In this document: positions 5,480 through 43,737 of the stretch, one piece after another
Layout: every line of letters starts with the position of its first letter
Position numbering within the stretch: position 1 is the first letter of the stretch
NCBI GenBank assembly: GCA_019058445.1
Contig: JAHPZA010000010.1
Span: 608,001-672,000 of the forward strand
DNA from: Promethearchaeota archaeon
GTDB taxonomy: Archaea > Asgardarchaeota > Lokiarchaeia > Sigyniarchaeales > SOKP01
Direction of reading: 5' to 3'
Length of the DNA: 64,000 bases
Notes under the pieces: model-generated
What the model saw: the letters and a program-made list of their open reading frames with translations, nothing else
Database searches by the model: none
What the model was told of the DNA's origin: nothing
Program-made: the position numbers and the translations under genes

Positions 5480-5737
5480 TTAGCCTATTTCTACATCCAT
5501 TTTCTTACGCTCTTCAAGGAGATCGTCAACTACAGATGGATCGGCTAAGGTTGTGACATTTCCAATATCAGTACCAGATGCGATAGCTTTTAAAATTCGA
5601 CGCATAATTTTACCACTTCTGGTTTTTGGAAGGGCATCTGCAAATTGAACGACATCTGGTTGAAAGACTGGTCCGATCTCTTGTCGAAAATGCATTTTAA
5701 TGTCGTGTTTCAAATCTACAAATTTTTCAATTCTCAT
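5480..5737 (-). pseudogene. acs: Orphan 3' fragment of acetyl-CoA synthetase (C-terminal part with [12 protein letters not shown])
   Basis: The last 66 aa are identical to the C-terminus of the acs gene ending at 13051; the rest of the gene is absent. Confidence 0.85.
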
Positions 5738-5831
5738 AAATATTATTATAACTCTGTTTATTTTGTTTTAATCCATAATTTTTTATAACCCTAACTCAAT
5801 ATATTTAAATTAAAGATTATTAAGCAAAACT

Positions 5832-13050: not shown

Positions 13051-15185
13051 TTAGCCTATTTCAACATCCATCTTCTTACGCTCTTCAAGGAGATCGTCAA
13101 CTACAGATGGATCGGCTAAGGTTGTGACATTTCCAATATCAGTTCCAGATGCGATAGCTTTTAAAATTCGACGCATGATTTTACCGCTTCTGGTTTTTGG
13201 GAGAGCATCGGCAAATTGAACGACATCAGGTTGAAATACTGGTCCTATTTCTTTTCGAACATGATTTTTAATATCTCTCTTCAACTCAACTGATTTATCA
13301 ACGCCTTGCATTAAAGTAACAAAACTCCAAATGGCTTGACCCTTAATTTTGTGGGGAAAAGGAGCTACTGCAGCTTCAGCTACCTTCGGATGACTCACTA
13401 TTGCTGATTCGACTTCCATGGTTCCAATTCGGTGGCCTGAAACCTTAATCACATCATCTAATCTGCCTAAAATCCAATAATAACCATCTTCGTCTCGACG
13501 TGCTCCATCTCCAGTATAGTAACATCCCGGATACCTTTCGAGATAAGTCGATTTGAATCGTTCGGTGTCACCCCACACATCTCTTAACATACCAGGCCAT
13601 GGTTGAGCCATACAAAAATATCCTCCTTCATGGGCTTCAGTTACCTCGTCTCCTTCTAAATCAAAAATTATCGGTTTGATTCCTAAGAATGGTAAGCAAC
13701 ATGAACCTGGTTTTGTGGGTGTAGCGGTCGCTATCGGCGTCATTATAAAGCCCCCCGTTTCTGTTAGCTAATGAGTGCGAATTGCAATCATCTTTTGCCA
13801 GTATGTATCAACGATGGGGCATTTTTCCTTTCCTACAATTCTGTGATACCACGTCCATGCCTCAGGGTTTTTCCCAAACTACGCATAAGTTGCATAATTT
13901 ATTGGTTCCCCTACAGTACCTAAGACGCGGATAGAGCTGAGATCATGTTTATTCACAGGCTCATCACCATATCGCATTAACGCTCTTATTGCCGTCGGAG
14001 CTGTATAAAACTGTGTAACCTTGTGTCGCTCAACAATATCCCAAAAGCGGTCCACATTTCCCCCATATGAAGAAATTTCAATTTTTCCTAAAGAATTAGG
14101 ATTTTTAATTTGTATGACTGGGTATGTAGGCACGCTTTCAAACATAAGTGTTGTAGCGCCATTTGCTAATGGTCCATATACAATATAACTATGTCCGGTA
14201 ATCCAACCTATATTTCAGCTAAGCTAAGCGAGTTGCTTTAACTTTCTGCTGTACAATACCAGACATCGCCATCCTTATAATTAAACACCACTCTATGTGT
14301 AAATGAAGTGTAAAGGATATAACCTGCTGTGGTATGTTTCACCCCTTTAGGTTTACCAGTAGTTCCGCTTGTATATAGGATGAATAAGGTGTCTTCAGAA
14401 TCCATTTCTTCACAATCACAATCCTCATTCATACCATCAATGAAATCATGATACCAGATATCCTTGTTGGTGCTTGGAACTTCATTTCCCGTACGCTTTA
14501 CTATTATAACATGCTCTATGGTAGGTACGTCATCGATAATTTGAGCGACATCTGCCATTTTTGGATAGGTTTTTCCCGCTCTAAAGGTCTCATCGCTAGT
14601 AAACAACAATCTCGAATCAGAATCCTCAATCCTATCTTTTACTGCTTCTTTTGAAAATCCGCCAAATACAATAGAATGAATTATTCCAAGTCGAGCGCAG
14701 GCTAACATAATAATTGCCAATTCAGGCAACATAGGGAGCCAAATGGTGACCCTATCTCCTTTTTTGAGCCCAAATTTTTTCATGCCGTTGGCAACTTTAC
14801 ACACTTCTTTTTTTAGCTCGCTAAATGTGAATTTTCTCACTTCTCCGGGTTCATCAGCCTCCCAGATTAGAGCGGTATGGTCGCCTTTCCCTTTTTTGAT
14901 ATGGCGATCGATACAATTATAGCATACGTTTAATTTTCCGCCAACAAACCATTTTCCGGGAAATAAGTCCGTTTTTTCCCAAACTTTATCGTAAGGTTTG
15001 AACCAGTCTAAAGATTTAGCTTGCTCGCCCCAAAACCCCTCCATATCATCAATACTTTGCTGCCACAGTTTTTTATATTCTTCGAAAGACATCCCGGTCT
15101 TTGCATAATCAGGATTTAAATTAACCGGATTGAAAACACGTGTTTCTGTAAGAATCGATTCCATTTTTTTATCTTCTTCTGACAT
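13051..15185 (-). CDS. acs: Acetyl-CoA synthetase (AMP-forming), five exons and four putative BHB introns; 660 aa after splicing
   Basis: Exons 15185-14246, 14213-14118, 14057-13901, 13870-13794 and 13763-13051 total 1983 nt (661 codons with stop). The joined protein has [53 protein letters not shown] and PKTRSGK. Confidence 0.92.
13764..13793 (-). other. Putative BHB intron 4 of acs (30 nt; in-frame TAG)
   Basis: CU-GGCA-AA^A-GAUGAUUGC-AAUUC-GCACUCAUU-AGCU-AA^C-AG, with 8 of 9 inner-stem pairs. Removal restores DTYWQTETGG. Confidence 0.83.
13871..13900 (-). other. Putative BHB intron 3 of acs (30 nt; in-frame TAG)
   Basis: ACCA-AU^A-AAUUAUGCA-ACUUA-UGCGUAGUU-UGGG-AA^A, with a 9-bp inner stem. 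Removal restores GEPINPEAW. Confidence 0.85.
14058..14117 (-). other. Putative BHB intron 2 of acs (60 nt; in frame, no stop)
   Basis: CUACAU-ACCC-AG^U-CAUA...UCCUAA-UUCU-UUAGGA...UAUG-GGGG-AA^A-UGUGG. Removal converts [28 protein letters not shown] to YPDVDRFW. Confidence 0.75.
14214..14245 (-). other. Putative BHB intron 1 of acs (32 nt; frameshifting, with in-frame TAA)
   Basis: UGUA-CAGC-AG^A-AAGUUAAAGC-AACUC-GCUUAGCUUA-GCUG-AA^A-UAUA. Central helix CAGC/GCUG pairs 4/4. Removal restores the Asp codon of CTAD-IGW. Confidence 0.85.
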
Positions 15186-15341: not shown

Positions 15342-17249
15342 ATGGAAAGAATTGATTTATTAGATAAAGACTGGAGAGAGAAATGGAAAAATAAGGAAAT
15401 AACACCCAAAGAGGCAATAGGGAAGATTATTCCTGGAAATCGGGTATTTATTGATACTGGGTGTAGTGAACCGCAGGCATTAACAGATGAATTAATCAAA
15501 CAATCTGAAAAATTGATAGATACTGAGTTAATTCACTTTCTCACAATTTATCCTCAAAAATATTTCAAAGATAAGGCAGAAGATTTGTTTAGGCATAATG
15601 CGTTTTTTATAGGGAAAGCTCTCAGAGAGGAAATAAATAAAGGACAAGCAGATTATACACCTATAATAGCCAGTGAAATTCCTTCATTATTTCTTTCAGG
15701 TCGTAAATATTGTGATGTTGCCTTAATTCAAGTAACTCCCCCGGATCGATATGGTTTTTGCTCATTTGGAGTTAATGTTGATGTTGCTAAGCCAATTGCC
15801 CAATCAGCGTACATTACTATTGCCGAGATAAATCCCCAAATGCCCAGAACATTGGGAAATAGCTTCATCCACATGAAAGAAATTGATCATTTTGTGTATA
15901 ACGACACACCTCTCATAGAATTCCAGTTTAAGGAAAAGAATGAGATTATTGAGAGAATAGGAAAAAATGTAGCAGGTATCATTCAAAATAAATCAACAAT
16001 CCATATTGGTAATGGATATATTCCGAATGCTTGTTTAAATTACTTATTTGAAAAAAGAGATCTTGGAATGCACTCTCATTTTATAACTGATAATATCATA
16101 CATTTAATAGAAAACACTGTTTTAACATGTAGGAAAAAGAACTTCCATCCTGAAAAGATTATTACTAGCTACGCGTTAGGAACAAAAAAGCTATTTGATT
16201 TTATCAATAATAATCCTTACATTGAGTTTTATCCAACAGATTACATCTGCAATCCCCGATATATCGCAATGAATAAAAACATGGTTTCAATAAATCAAGC
16301 ATTACAAATCGATTTAACAGGCCAAGTAAATACTTCAACAAAAGGATACAAATTTCATACTGGAATTGGAGATACTGTGGATTTTATGAGAGGGGCAGCG
16401 CTTTCTAAGGGTGGAAAGCCAATAATTGTTTTACCTTCAACAAGAAAAGAGGGAACGGAATCAACCATAGTTCCCCATTTAGACGAGGGAGCGGGAATAA
16501 TTCTTTCTCGAGCAGATATTCACTATGTTGTAACCGAATGGGGAGTAGCATATCTTCATGGAAGGACAATTCGAGAAAGAGCCTTAGAATTAATATCTAT
16601 TGCCCATCCTGATTTTAGACAGTCTTTATTAGATCAAGCGAAAATATTGAACTACATTTACTCTGATCAATTATTACCCTGCGATGAGGAAGGAAATATT
16701 TGTATTTATCCAAAACACTATGAGACCTATTTTGTGACTAGAGCTGAAGAAAAAGTTATTGTACGCCCGGTAAGGACAACTGACGAACCTCTCTTGAAAA
16801 AATTGTATTATTCTTTAGATGAAAGAGATAGATATTTGAGGTTCTTTGAGGTGAAAAAGGAATTTACACATTCAAAAACACAACATGAGGTTAATATTGA
16901 TTATGAGAATATCTTTTCAATTGGAGCTTTTGTAGGAGATATTACAAATCAGGAAATGGTGGGAAACGCATCTTATTACTATAATCCCCGAAATAATATG
17001 GCAGAATACAGCTTTTTAGTTCGAGAAGATTATAGAGGTAAAGGAGTGGGCTCTTTTCTCTATCACCACTTAATCATCATAGCAAAAGAAAGGGGAATAA
17101 AAGGATTTTATGGAACTATTCACATCCAAAATAAACAGACGGTACAGATCATAAGGAAAGGAGGGTACACAAAAATTACACCTCCAGAAGCAGGAGAAAA
17201 AGAATTATTTTATGAAGTTTTTTTTGATAAAGACAATTCAAATGAATAA
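15342..17249 (+). CDS. Acetyl-CoA hydrolase/CoA-transferase fused to a C-terminal GNAT acetyltransferase
   Basis: DVALIQVTPPD, IDLTGQV, DFMRGAALSKGG and VVTEWGVAYLHG in the N-terminal part; C-terminal VREDYRGKGVG GNAT motif A. Divergent from acs. Confidence 0.88.
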   Translation: MERIDLLDKDWREKWKNKEITPKEAIGKIIPGNRVFIDTGCSEPQALTDELIKQSEKLIDTELIHFLTIYPQKYFKDKAEDLFRHNAFFIGKALREEINKGQADYTPIIASEIPSLFLSGRKYCDVALIQVTPPDRYGFCSFGVNVDVAKPIAQSAYITIAEINPQMPRTLGNSFIHMKEIDHFVYNDTPLIEFQFKEKNEIIERIGKNVAGIIQNKSTIHIGNGYIPNACLNYLFEKRDLGMHSHFITDNIIHLIENTVLTCRKKNFHPEKIITSYALGTKKLFDFINNNPYIEFYPTDYICNPRYIAMNKNMVSINQALQIDLTGQVNTSTKGYKFHTGIGDTVDFMRGAALSKGGKPIIVLPSTRKEGTESTIVPHLDEGAGIILSRADIHYVVTEWGVAYLHGRTIRERALELISIAHPDFRQSLLDQAKILNYIYSDQLLPCDEEGNICIYPKHYETYFVTRAEEKVIVRPVRTTDEPLLKKLYYSLDERDRYLRFFEVKKEFTHSKTQHEVNIDYENIFSIGAFVGDITNQEMVGNASYYYNPRNNMAEYSFLVREDYRGKGVGSFLYHHLIIIAKERGIKGFYGTIHIQNKQTVQIIRKGGYTKITPPEAGEKELFYEVFFDKDNSNE

Positions 17250-17414: not shown

Positions 17415-18008
17415 TTGGAGCATATCTCAAAACCTTTGTTAATGCCCGTTTTAGCCTTGTACTTTATATTTGCTACATTCACTGATGGAACTAACTGGCT
17501 TATAGTTTTAGCACTGTTATTTGGATGTATCGGGGATATTTTTTTAATGTTAGAAAACGAAGAAAAATGGTTCATATTTGGAATGGTAGGATTTCTAATA
17601 GGACATATATTTTATATAATTGCGTTCTTGCTCTCGATTGGAGGTCAACTCACGTCTTTCCCATTTTGGGGGATTCTTATGATTGTTCCAGTTATAATAA
17701 TTCTATTGTTAACGTTCCCAAGATTCAAGGATCATATGGGCGAGTTAAAAATACCTGTATATGTCTACATGGCAACAATTTTATTAATGCATTTATCCGC
17801 AATTTTAAGATTAGCTGTACTTGATGTTTTTTGTCCATGTTTTTTACTCGTTTGGATAGGCTCAATTTTATTTATATTATCTGACTCTTTAATAGCTGTT
17901 GATACATTCAATGAGAATATAGAAATTCCTAATTTCTATATCATGTTGACTTACATTTTCGGTCAGTTTTTCATCGCTCAAGGAATAATAATGACAATTT
18001 TAATGTAG
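17415..18008 (+). CDS. Lysoplasmalogenase-like (YhhN/TMEM86) membrane protein
   Basis: SKPLLMP, GDIFL, FLIGHIFY, FILSDSLIA and IMLTYIFGQ motifs. The frame is open upstream to 17331, so the real N-terminus is probably longer. Confidence 0.85.
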   Translation: MEHISKPLLMPVLALYFIFATFTDGTNWLIVLALLFGCIGDIFLMLENEEKWFIFGMVGFLIGHIFYIIAFLLSIGGQLTSFPFWGILMIVPVIIILLLTFPRFKDHMGELKIPVYVYMATILLMHLSAILRLAVLDVFCPCFLLVWIGSILFILSDSLIAVDTFNENIEIPNFYIMLTYIFGQFFIAQGIIMTILM

Positions 18009-42672: not shown

Positions 42673-43737
42673 TCAGATATATTTTTTTAAAACTTCGATT
42701 ACAACTTTCATAGGAGTTATATTTTCAGATTCCATTCTTCTTAACGCTTCTTCTTTTGTTATCATCTTCTCTCTTATCATATTACTTAATATTTCATCTT
42801 TTTCCGTAAATCCAATACTTTTCTTATAGAGATAATTTTTTAATACGCTTATAAGACAATCAAAACGCCAAGGAGATGTGCTGAAATCTGAAACTTTCCA
42901 ATTTAATTTTTTTTTTATTGTAGATAATACTTTTTGTTCATTCCATTCAATATAACGATAAAGTCTCAAAGTTATTTGATTGGGATAAAAGAAATCTCGA
43001 ATTTTGTTGGAATGAAAACAATAGAAGTATTCTTTCAAATATATTAAAGAAATGGTTGCATTTAAGAAGTAAAGAGGATTTTTTAAAAGCTCGTACACAT
43101 AACCAAATAGGAATGAAAATATCTTACTCTTTCTAATGATTTTTATACTACCAAAGGGATTACTAAAAAATAATTTTTTTTTGAAGCGGGAGGATTCTAC
43201 TGGATTTCCAGCACCTATCACAATGAGTGGAATCTTCTCTTTTTTTGCTAATTTTAGTAACCCTCGAAAAATGCCAAGTCTACATCCACAGCATATCATA
43301 GGAATCATTGCAGCTGAGGGGTTACGCATCCACGATTTAATATTATGCCTAATACAATTCCTCAAAAAATTATGCTTTTCAATAATCAATTTAACATTTA
43401 AAATATCAGTCATTTTCTTCATATTGCTTTTTGCTTCTTTAGGAATAAAGCCATTATCAGCAGAATATGCAAGTATTTTCATATTAAACTTTTTTACAAG
43501 ATAATATAACGCATATGAACTGTCTCTCCCTCCACTTATCCCAACTAAACAATCATATTTATTATTTTCATTTCGAATAGAATCAAATATTTTCTCCAAT
43601 TTTTTTTTTCCCTTATATTTTGCCTTCCTATAACTTAAGCAGTAATTGCAAACTCCATCTTGATCATACTCTATTCCAGGATAATTTGCTGGTAATAGAC
43701 ATTTAGTACATTTTTTTAAGGATATCTGGTTTATCAT
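42673..43737 (-). CDS. PP-loop N-acetyl-sugar amidotransferase (WbpG-like)
   Basis: CTKC...CNYC; YDCLVGISGGRDS PP-loop. Confidence 0.8.
   Translation of the reverse strand: MINQISLKKCTKCLLPANYPGIEYDQDGVCNYCLSYRKAKYKGKKKLEKIFDSIRNENNKYDCLVGISGGRDSSYALYYLVKKFNMKILAYSADNGFIPKEAKSNMKKMTDILNVKLIIEKHNFLRNCIRHNIKSWMRNPSAAMIPMICCGCRLGIFRGLLKLAKKEKIPLIVIGAGNPVESSRFKKKLFFSNPFGSIKIIRKSKIFSFLFGYVYELLKNPLYFLNATISLIYLKEYFYCFHSNKIRDFFYPNQITLRLYRYIEWNEQKVLSTIKKKLNWKVSDFSTSPWRFDCLISVLKNYLYKKSIGFTEKDEILSNMIREKMITKEEALRRMESENITPMKVVIEVLKKYI

Follow-up and report, generated by a model that had tools for sequence, protein, structure and literature searches.

We find that the gene for an AMP-forming acetyl-CoA synthetase (AcsA; acs below) of a Promethearchaeota archaeon (assembly GCA_019058445.1) is divided into five coding pieces by four short inserts, which are very probably bulge-helix-bulge (BHB) introns. 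The gene lies on the minus strand of the window, the 64,000-nt stretch of contig JAHPZA010000010.1 that was analyzed (forward-strand positions 608,001 to 672,000), and the window's own numbering is used for it throughout. The genome is denoted G000, other G numbers stand for related genomes, L numbers for metagenomic loci and X1 to X4 for sequencing runs. The inserts are numbered in the direction of transcription and called introns for brevity:

13051–15185 (minus): acs, five exons and four putative introns, match to TIGR02188/NF001208
14246–15185 (minus): exon 1, amino acids 1–313 and the first base of codon 314
14214–14245 (minus): putative intron 1, 32 nt, phase 1, in-frame TAA, frame shift
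14118–14213 (minus): exon 2, 96 nt
14058–14117 (minus): putative intron 2, 60 nt, phase 1, in frame, stop-free
13901–14057 (minus): exon 3, 157 nt
13871–13900 (minus): putative intron 3, 30 nt, phase 2, in-frame TAG
13794–13870 (minus): exon 4, 77 nt
13764–13793 (minus): putative intron 4, 30 nt, phase 1, in-frame TGA and TAG
13051–13763 (minus): exon 5, the last two bases of the split Thr codon, 236 codons and the stop

Positions 3–288 of the TIGR02188/NF001208 AcsA model are covered by exon 1 and positions 400–628 by exon 5, and the uninterrupted orthologue from a sister genome scores 952 bits against the TIGR02188 cut-off of 725. Deletion of the four inserts leaves exactly 1983 nt, a stop-free frame of 660 amino acids with no other lesion, and restores the protein junctions CTAD-IGW, YPD-VDRFW, GEPI-NPEAW and WQ-TETGG. 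The boundary of intron 4 can be slid by up to 2 nt without changing this product, and an open reading frame (ORF) at 13879–14145 runs uninterrupted across intron 2.

Geometry of the inserts

Together with the flanking exons, each insert can be folded into a layout that matches that of the tRNA 37/38 intron. From 5′ to 3′, the upstream side holds an outer exon helix, four exon bases that form the 5′ strand of a central helix, two bulge bases, the predicted cut and one further bulge base. The intron hairpin comes next, followed by four intron bases as the 3′ strand of the central helix, two bulge bases, the second cut, one exon bulge base and the second strand of the outer helix. The motifs are as follows, with arrows at the predicted cuts:

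14209–14255 (minus): intron 1 BHB motif; outer helix UGUA/UAUA, central helix CAGC/GCUG, bulges AG↓A and AA↓A, inner hairpin
14052–14129 (minus): intron 2 relaxed BHB motif; outer exon–exon helix CUAC(AU)/(AU)GUGG, central helix ACCC/GGGG, bulges AG↓U and AA↓A
13864–13911 (minus): intron 3 BHB motif; outer helix GGGG/CCCU beyond a small internal loop, central helix ACCA/UGGG, 9-bp hairpin with 5-nt loop
13761–13801 (minus): intron 4 BHB motif; outer 2-bp helix CU/AG, central helix GGCA/AGCU, bulges AA↓A and AA↓C, hairpin of nine positions (eight paired) with 5-nt loop

In G000 the central helix is paired at four of four positions in intron 1 and at three of four in each of introns 2, 3 and 4, and in every one of the four it is flanked by 3-nt bulges and an inner hairpin. 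Intron 1, with an inner hairpin of 7+2 bp around a one-base bulge, is the only one with all three helices fully paired. The interior of intron 2 is composite, with a 4-bp closing helix and two hairpins. The outer helices of introns 2 to 4 are weaker or offset, those of introns 2 and 3 being set off by a small internal loop, and these three are relaxed, not strict, BHB motifs. A cut after the second base of each bulge coincides with the homology-defined junction at all four sites.

A sequence-only reading made earlier had described much of this anatomy. It had placed the four inserts at the coordinates found here, counted three with in-frame stops (introns 1, 3 and 4) of which one also shifts the frame (intron 1), and given 1983 nt and 660 amino acids with the four named junctions after their removal, all of which we reproduced exactly. 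The four central helices it named, with three or four of four pairs and flanking 3-nt bulges, are all present, and its proposal that cutting after the second bulge nucleotide restores the frame was borne out in all four cases. Its remark that some of the helices are relaxed was a fair one.

Inserts at the same sites in related genes

Sixty related genomes were searched with the exon-5 protein, and most hold an open acs frame of about 660 amino acids. In G002, which belongs to the same genus and shares 95% amino acid identity, acs is uninterrupted at all four sites. The sequence-only reading had proposed an alignment to uninterrupted acs genes of the lineage, and in it G002 and others are indeed continuous through every junction. 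In G003, G005 and G006, all from the same genus, the acs frame ends at the intron-4 site as it does in G000, and the DNA alignment places a 30-nt insert exactly there in all three and also at the intron-3 site in G005. Neither intron 1 nor intron 2 occurs in any of these 60 genomes. A set of 80 species-representative genomes that have close acs genes contains nine with inserts at these sites, and among 80 metagenomic acs loci (77–95% identical in exon 1) there are 22 with inserts. The intron-bearing acs loci number 26 in all (G000, G003, G005, G006 and the 22 metagenomic ones), come from different species and samples, and hold 70 inserts at eight fixed sites with up to seven per gene. The sites, in nucleotides of the coding sequence (CDS), are:

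CDS nt 940: intron 1, 32 nt, 13 loci
CDS nt 1036: intron 2, 60 or 42 nt, 7 loci
CDS nt 1042 (1034 as aligned in one locus): absent from G000, 33 nt, 3 loci
CDS nt 1084: absent from G000, 30 nt, 7 loci
CDS nt 1193: intron 3, 30 nt, 10 loci
CDS nt 1270: intron 4, 30 nt, 21 loci
CDS nt 1431: absent from G000, 30 nt, 4 loci
CDS nt 1515: absent from G000, 29 or 32 nt, 5 loci

All four introns of the window have orthologues in other loci. Those of intron 2 measure 60 nt in L049 and 42 nt in L053, L055, L056, L080 and L108, and seven introns each are found in L055 (Ga0315536_1000131) and L117 (Ga0180438_10030581). Removal of the inserts gives an unbroken frame in 26 of 26 loci, with 646–667 amino acids where the contig holds the whole gene or nearly so, and fewer than 646 only where the contig ends within the gene. 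The cut rule also holds where the boundaries are unambiguous, namely at site 1084 (seven loci), in intron 2, in most copies at 1431 and 1515, and in copies of intron 4 that end in AT or AG. At each of the eight sites, both bulges begin with A. The nearest named relatives of G000 are metagenome-assembled genomes (MAGs) of Promethearchaeota/Promethearchaeia, the current name of Lokiarchaeota, so that the Asgard origin assumed in the sequence-only reading holds, more precisely as Lokiarchaeia.

The insert sequences have diverged almost completely among relatives, and their RNA fold is preserved by covariation. Gapless alignments were made of each intron with 12 nt of exon per side (A3 for intron 1, A2 for intron 3, A1 for intron 4), and a fixed BHB template was imposed on them, anchored at the homology-defined junctions. 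With this template, which was partly suggested by the window's own fold and therefore somewhat favors the percentages of paired cells, but not the counts of double changes, 90.0% of cells are paired in intron 1 (24–39% when the template is slid), 90.6% in intron 3 (21–45% slid) and 88.6% in intron 4 (30–48% slid). Pairs changed on both sides make up 9 of 10 in the inner hairpin of intron 1, and 7 of 9 and 8 of 9 in the hairpins of introns 3 and 4; the respective covariation scores of 0.39, 0.52 and 0.50 were reached by none of 500 shuffles in any of the three. By element, the inner hairpins (9–10 positions) are 84–97% paired with seven to nine covarying pairs each, and the outer helices (2–4 bp) are 95–97% paired. 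The central helix is paired at 72.5% in intron 3 and 79.4% in intron 4, each with one position rarely or never paired, and in intron 1 it is invariant and 100% paired in 10 distinct sequences, with a nearly invariant outer helix. One exon–intron pair in the central helix of intron 3 is G-C in eight sequences and A-U in two, the exon side being a synonymous third position of Pro.

The exons bear the mark of the motif as well. Around intron 1, the four third positions within the motif have entropies of 1.9, 1.7, 0.7 and 1.4 bits in 66 distinct intron-less contexts and 0 bits in carriers, and just beyond the motif the nearest third position varies equally in carriers and non-carriers, at 1.8 bits. 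Such freezing of synonymous exon sites in carriers only is also seen at other sites, more weakly at introns 3 and 4. Recombination hitch-hiking could contribute to it, and the abruptness with which it ends, 8 nt from the junction, speaks for constraint. On the comparative data a chance origin of the inserts is excluded, which the sequence of the window would not achieve alone.

Probable splicing and alternative explanations

We consider it very likely that the four acs inserts are BHB introns that are spliced out of the mRNA. This view builds on the anatomy and the exact restoration of the frame, on the conservation of sites and structure, on the purifying selection in the exons described below, and on the presence in G000 of a ligase module and one endonuclease subunit. 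In the pre-mRNA, the 3′ part of each intron would base-pair with the end of the upstream exon, giving a central helix of 3–4 bp, with two 3-nt bulges on opposite strands beside it, bounded inside by the intron hairpin and outside by a short exon–exon helix. After cutting in the bulges, RtcB with archease would join the exons and circularize the intron, and the product would be the 1983-nt reading frame of the 660-residue enzyme.

RtcB is encoded in G000 by an uninterrupted open frame of 492 amino acids (match E 2.6e-172), and rtcB and the gene for archease are convergent immediate neighbors at C1:114713-116452. The sole homologue of the endonuclease EndA in G000 has 202 amino acids (C9:770313-770918; L001:1219-1827). 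In alignment with the Methanocaldococcus jannaschii enzyme it has Phe and Ser in place of the catalytic Tyr115 and His125, and thus it looks like a structural beta subunit. Two EndA paralogues are present in 28 of 30 relatives, G003 and G005 among them, and one was found in G002; an alpha ORF of a sister genome lies at L042:1171-1770. The higher-scoring paralogue, as represented in G002, has the Tyr/His/Lys triad and an extra loop with its Lys, and this alpha-type protein finds its best solved match in the alpha subunit of Aeropyrum pernix (E 2.7e-38). Published work assigns Asgard archaea the (alpha-beta)2 type of EndA with the L1 loop, and earlier work cited there (Yoshinari 2006) connects archaeal pre-mRNA splicing with hetero-oligomeric EndA. 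A weak match at C3:126738, considered as a second EndA candidate in G000, is a methyltransferase-like ORF and was rejected.

Several points weigh against splicing of this kind. The catalytic alpha subunit of EndA was not found in the G000 assembly, which is 92.6% complete; the 3.2-kb neighborhood of the G002 alpha gene has no match in the assembly either, and the joint lack of gene and neighborhood suggests, without proof, a gap in the assembly. The motifs have irregularities: the hairpin of intron 1 in G000 contains one extra unpaired A, two or three bases can be assigned to the 3′ bulge of intron 2, the outermost central-helix pair of intron 3 (A.G) is unpaired in 10 of 10 sequences, and the innermost central-helix pair of intron 4 forms in just 3 of 17. 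As the cell has no nucleus, translation could begin on mRNA that is still unspliced. The index of sequencing runs lists no RNA run for acs or for its intron-bearing stretch of 601 bases. Finally, we infer the cutting and joining of the RNA, and EndA and RtcB as the enzymes, from comparative evidence, and one of the four inserts is compatible in sequence with being read through.

That insert is intron 2, and the alternative that survives best, unlikely as we hold it to be, is a mixed case in which introns 1, 3 and 4 are spliced and intron 2 is translated as an insertion of 20 amino acids (14 in relatives). It is in frame and stop-free in all seven variants, which would allow read-through of 14–20 amino acids, and its motif is the most relaxed of the four. 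However, it interrupts the conserved motif YPDVDRFW, and a comparison by hand shows 4 of its 20 residues to be changed between G000 and L049, at an exon identity of 95%. What the 60-nt and 42-nt forms have in common is RNA structure (the 3′ hairpin and the closing helix) and not peptide sequence. In two relatives the central helix has GGGU instead of GGGG, giving ACCC/GGGU with four of four pairs, and a pair of the outer exon–exon helix covaries as UA, UG or CG at positions that are synonymous in both exons. The flanking synonymous sites are, furthermore, frozen only in carriers, with a mean entropy of 0.12 bits against 0.61 in non-carriers. We therefore favor splicing for intron 2 as well.

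Another route past the inserts, which we regard as improbable, would be translational bypassing, as in T4 gene 60 and the yeast mitochondrial byps, or removal by an unknown hairpin nuclease and a ligase. Every insert is a compact hairpin, the link of the acs inserts to EndA comes from sequence comparison, and the catalytic gene is the one missing from the G000 assembly. On the other hand, the exon–intron pairing of the central helix and the exon–exon pairing of the outer helix are conserved at the exact offsets of the tRNA 37/38 intron, and bypassing needs none of this pairing. By inspection the take-off and landing codons are mismatched, with, for instance, no matching pair from the codons that introns 1 and 2 split (G↓AT). 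Genes for both the alpha and the beta subunit of EndA are present in related genomes, and the tRNA genes of G000 itself appear heavily interrupted: over 4.6 Mb ARAGORN recognizes just 23 tRNA genes and predicts introns in 19 of these, which fits such interruption, and most of the tRNA genes are probably too interrupted to be recognized. Splicing at BHB motifs remains the explanation we prefer.

That acs is a decaying pseudogene and the inserts are disabling insertions is very improbable. Three inserts bring stops and one a frame shift, and standard ORF calling yields acs in fragments only. Set against this are the 1983 nt free of any other lesion, the 25 other loci with inserts at the same sites and unbroken frames upon their removal, the covarying fold, and the lack of a second close acs in the assembly, where a search at E<=1e-40 gave nothing else than one 95-residue fragment. 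The sequence-only reading had named relaxed exon dN/dS as a sign of decay. By the Nei-Gojobori method on spliced coding sequences, G000 against the intron-less G002 has a dN of 0.029, a dS of 1.67 and a dN/dS of 0.017, and over all pairs the ratio is 0.017–0.09 with dS mostly saturated; this is strong purifying selection, and a gene dead for a sizeable part of the divergence would not look like this. The earlier conclusion of a functional five-exon gene is thus strongly supported.

The least credible explanation is that the inserts are chimeric or erroneous products of assembly or binning, for although the source genome is metagenome-assembled, a single contig from run X1, 28 kb long, at depth 26 and probably what the G000 assembly derives from, contains all four inserts with identical sequence, short contigs of three further samples of that study bridge intron 1 (X3 and X4) or intron 4 (X2), and unrelated assemblies have inserts at these sites too. 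These bridging contigs answer the sequence-only reading's call for a check that the inserts are genomic. Short contigs from the X2–X4 samples also reach into introns 2, 3 and 4, and an intron-less acs joint was not seen among the contigs of the DNA runs examined. Each acs intron is single-copy in G000, with only chance A/T-rich matches of up to 24 nt elsewhere, and so lacks the several similar copies expected of a repeated or mobile hairpin element resembling miniature inverted-repeat transposable elements (MITE) or repetitive extragenic palindromes (REP). The introns match no Rfam family.

On a FastTree phylogeny of 91 Acs proteins, the presence of introns requires at least 12–15 changes. Pairs that are 93–95% identical in exon DNA differ by three introns versus none (L108/L115) and seven versus six (L055/L056), and in each difference between relatives an intron is either present or absent, without a scar. 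Intron sequences from the same site group, by eye, with the clades of the host genes, which fits old introns with many precise losses. From these sequences the introns appear to be old at their sites and to have been lost, or gained, precisely and often. No reverse transcriptase (PF00078) was found in the 92.6%-complete assembly, and intron loss mediated by such an enzyme is therefore unsupported here. We put forward tentatively, as a possibility somewhat short of even, that Lokiarchaeia hold EndA-type introns genome-wide in ordinary protein genes, up to seven per gene, long kept at defined sites and with turnover fast enough for precise loss or gain between strains 93–95% identical in exon DNA.

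Known systems and further inserts in the genome

To our knowledge, the archaeal record of protein-coding introns that EndA removes consists essentially of cbf5, a gene with a single such intron. The cbf5 pre-mRNA intron of the Thermoproteota (Desulfurococcales and Sulfolobales) is a single short BHB intron in an RNA-modification gene, that for a pseudouridine synthase (Watanabe 2002; Yoshinari 2006; Yokobori 2009, PMC2738675). Like it, the acs introns are short BHB introns within protein-coding sequence that are gained and lost among relatives. The cbf5 intron is cut by a hetero-oligomeric (alpha-beta)2 EndA with an extra loop, and this type would be shared. Unlike cbf5, with one intron in one gene of another phylum, acs has four introns (up to seven in relatives), encodes a central metabolic enzyme and belongs to Lokiarchaeia, and other genes of G000 are affected too. 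The acs introns do not belong to the cbf5 intron family, as the host gene is AcsA and they are not homologous to the cbf5 intron. The kind of intron is thus already known from cbf5; what is new is several introns per gene, a metabolic host gene, the Asgard lineage and turnover at the population level.

In eukaryotes, HAC1/XBP1 splicing relies on cleavage by the kinase-RNase Ire1, with ligation by RtcB in animals, and serves as a regulated stress switch on one transcript. The acs introns would share with it a short non-spliceosomal mRNA intron, a protein endonuclease acting on paired stem-loops and RtcB-type ligation, but the endonuclease differs, being presumably EndA. Asgard tRNA genes contain non-canonical and multiple BHB introns (PMC11291895; bioRxiv 10.64898/2026.10.13.758758), including a 31-nt intron in tRNA-Sec (PMC4989117). 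These resemble the acs introns in their length of about 30 nt, their motif, the enzymes presumed to act on them and their repeated gain and loss. The host RNA of the acs introns is, in contrast, an mRNA; here the motif's exon half is composed of codons, and synonymous sites are frozen as a result. Archaeal rRNA precursors and a Haloferax mRNA leader have BHB sites that are processed by EndA (PMC7714728), and so also exemplify EndA action outside tRNA; these are processing sites or non-coding, however, and do not restore a frame within codons. In the literature searched, from which most subscription journals are absent, we found no description of BHB introns in Asgard protein genes and only tRNA introns reported, in line with the sequence-only reading, which knew of none.

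If splicing is confirmed, a spliceosome-free Asgard archaeon would have mosaic protein genes and a requirement for mRNA splicing, which raises the matter of how unspliced messages stay away from ribosomes. With short introns and two known enzymes, it would also be a tractable system for the spread of introns in protein genes. If the genome-wide proposal is true, these would be the first prokaryotes with truly mosaic, multi-intron protein genes, and mRNA maturation would be obligatory before productive translation in the closest archaeal relatives of eukaryotes. Intron-bearing genes mis-called as fragments or pseudogenes would lead metabolic reconstructions to under-count functional genes.

A gapless log-odds model of the BHB motif gives 25 matches of at least 20 bits in G000 against 7 in mirrored sequence, an excess that is real but modest. 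The top matches lie in tRNA-like contexts and in frame-restoring 30-nt inserts in protein genes, such as that for EF-2. Genome scans of G000 recovered the inserts in EF-2 and in a GH38 enzyme, and some of the 30-nt inserts in protein genes were also found via paralogues, with no structure criterion; the paralogue tblastn census gave mostly junctions of tandem genes and a handful of clean 30-nt introns. Further 30-nt inserts with a BHB motif, whose removal fuses open frames, are located in G000 at:

C10:684116 (minus), EF-2
C10:5858 (plus)
C9:775863 (minus)
C6:1128412 (minus)
C2:158336 (minus)
C1:204546 (minus)
C9:6926 (plus)
C6:862879 (minus)
C6:563114 (plus)

Several other motifs with high scores are found no more than 25 codons from where a gene starts. 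Genome-wide scans that combined a pairing rule with ORF restoration gave at most a slight excess over chance or frame-offset controls and are uninformative either way: junctions of adjacent genes swamp the signal, a 60-codon flank rule drops the acs introns, and a 20-codon rule drops introns near gene starts. Within the window, a candidate BHB insert at 42946–42976 (minus) was rejected, as its upstream 'exon' is not protein-like. At 17916–17947 (plus), a perfect hairpin of 28–32 nt in a weak BHB-like context (11–12.5 bits) lies between open frames of 195 and 39 codons, and could be an intron or a terminator.

Part of acs is duplicated in its vicinity. A short ORF at 5483–5749 (minus), 7.3 kb downstream of acs, is a duplicate of the acs 3′ end; it shares its final 65 residues or so, without change, with the C-terminus of Acs and has a match to Pfam AMP-binding_C. 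Fragments of this sort, of 94–99 amino acids, are also present in G003 and G019, and a contig joint in run X1 reflects the repeat. On the other side of acs, the divergent neighbor at 15342–17249 (plus) encodes 635 amino acids with acetyl-CoA hydrolase/transferase domains fused to a C-terminal GNAT acetyltransferase domain. We point out that this fusion protein could be a Pat-like regulator of Acs, acting by lysine acetylation.

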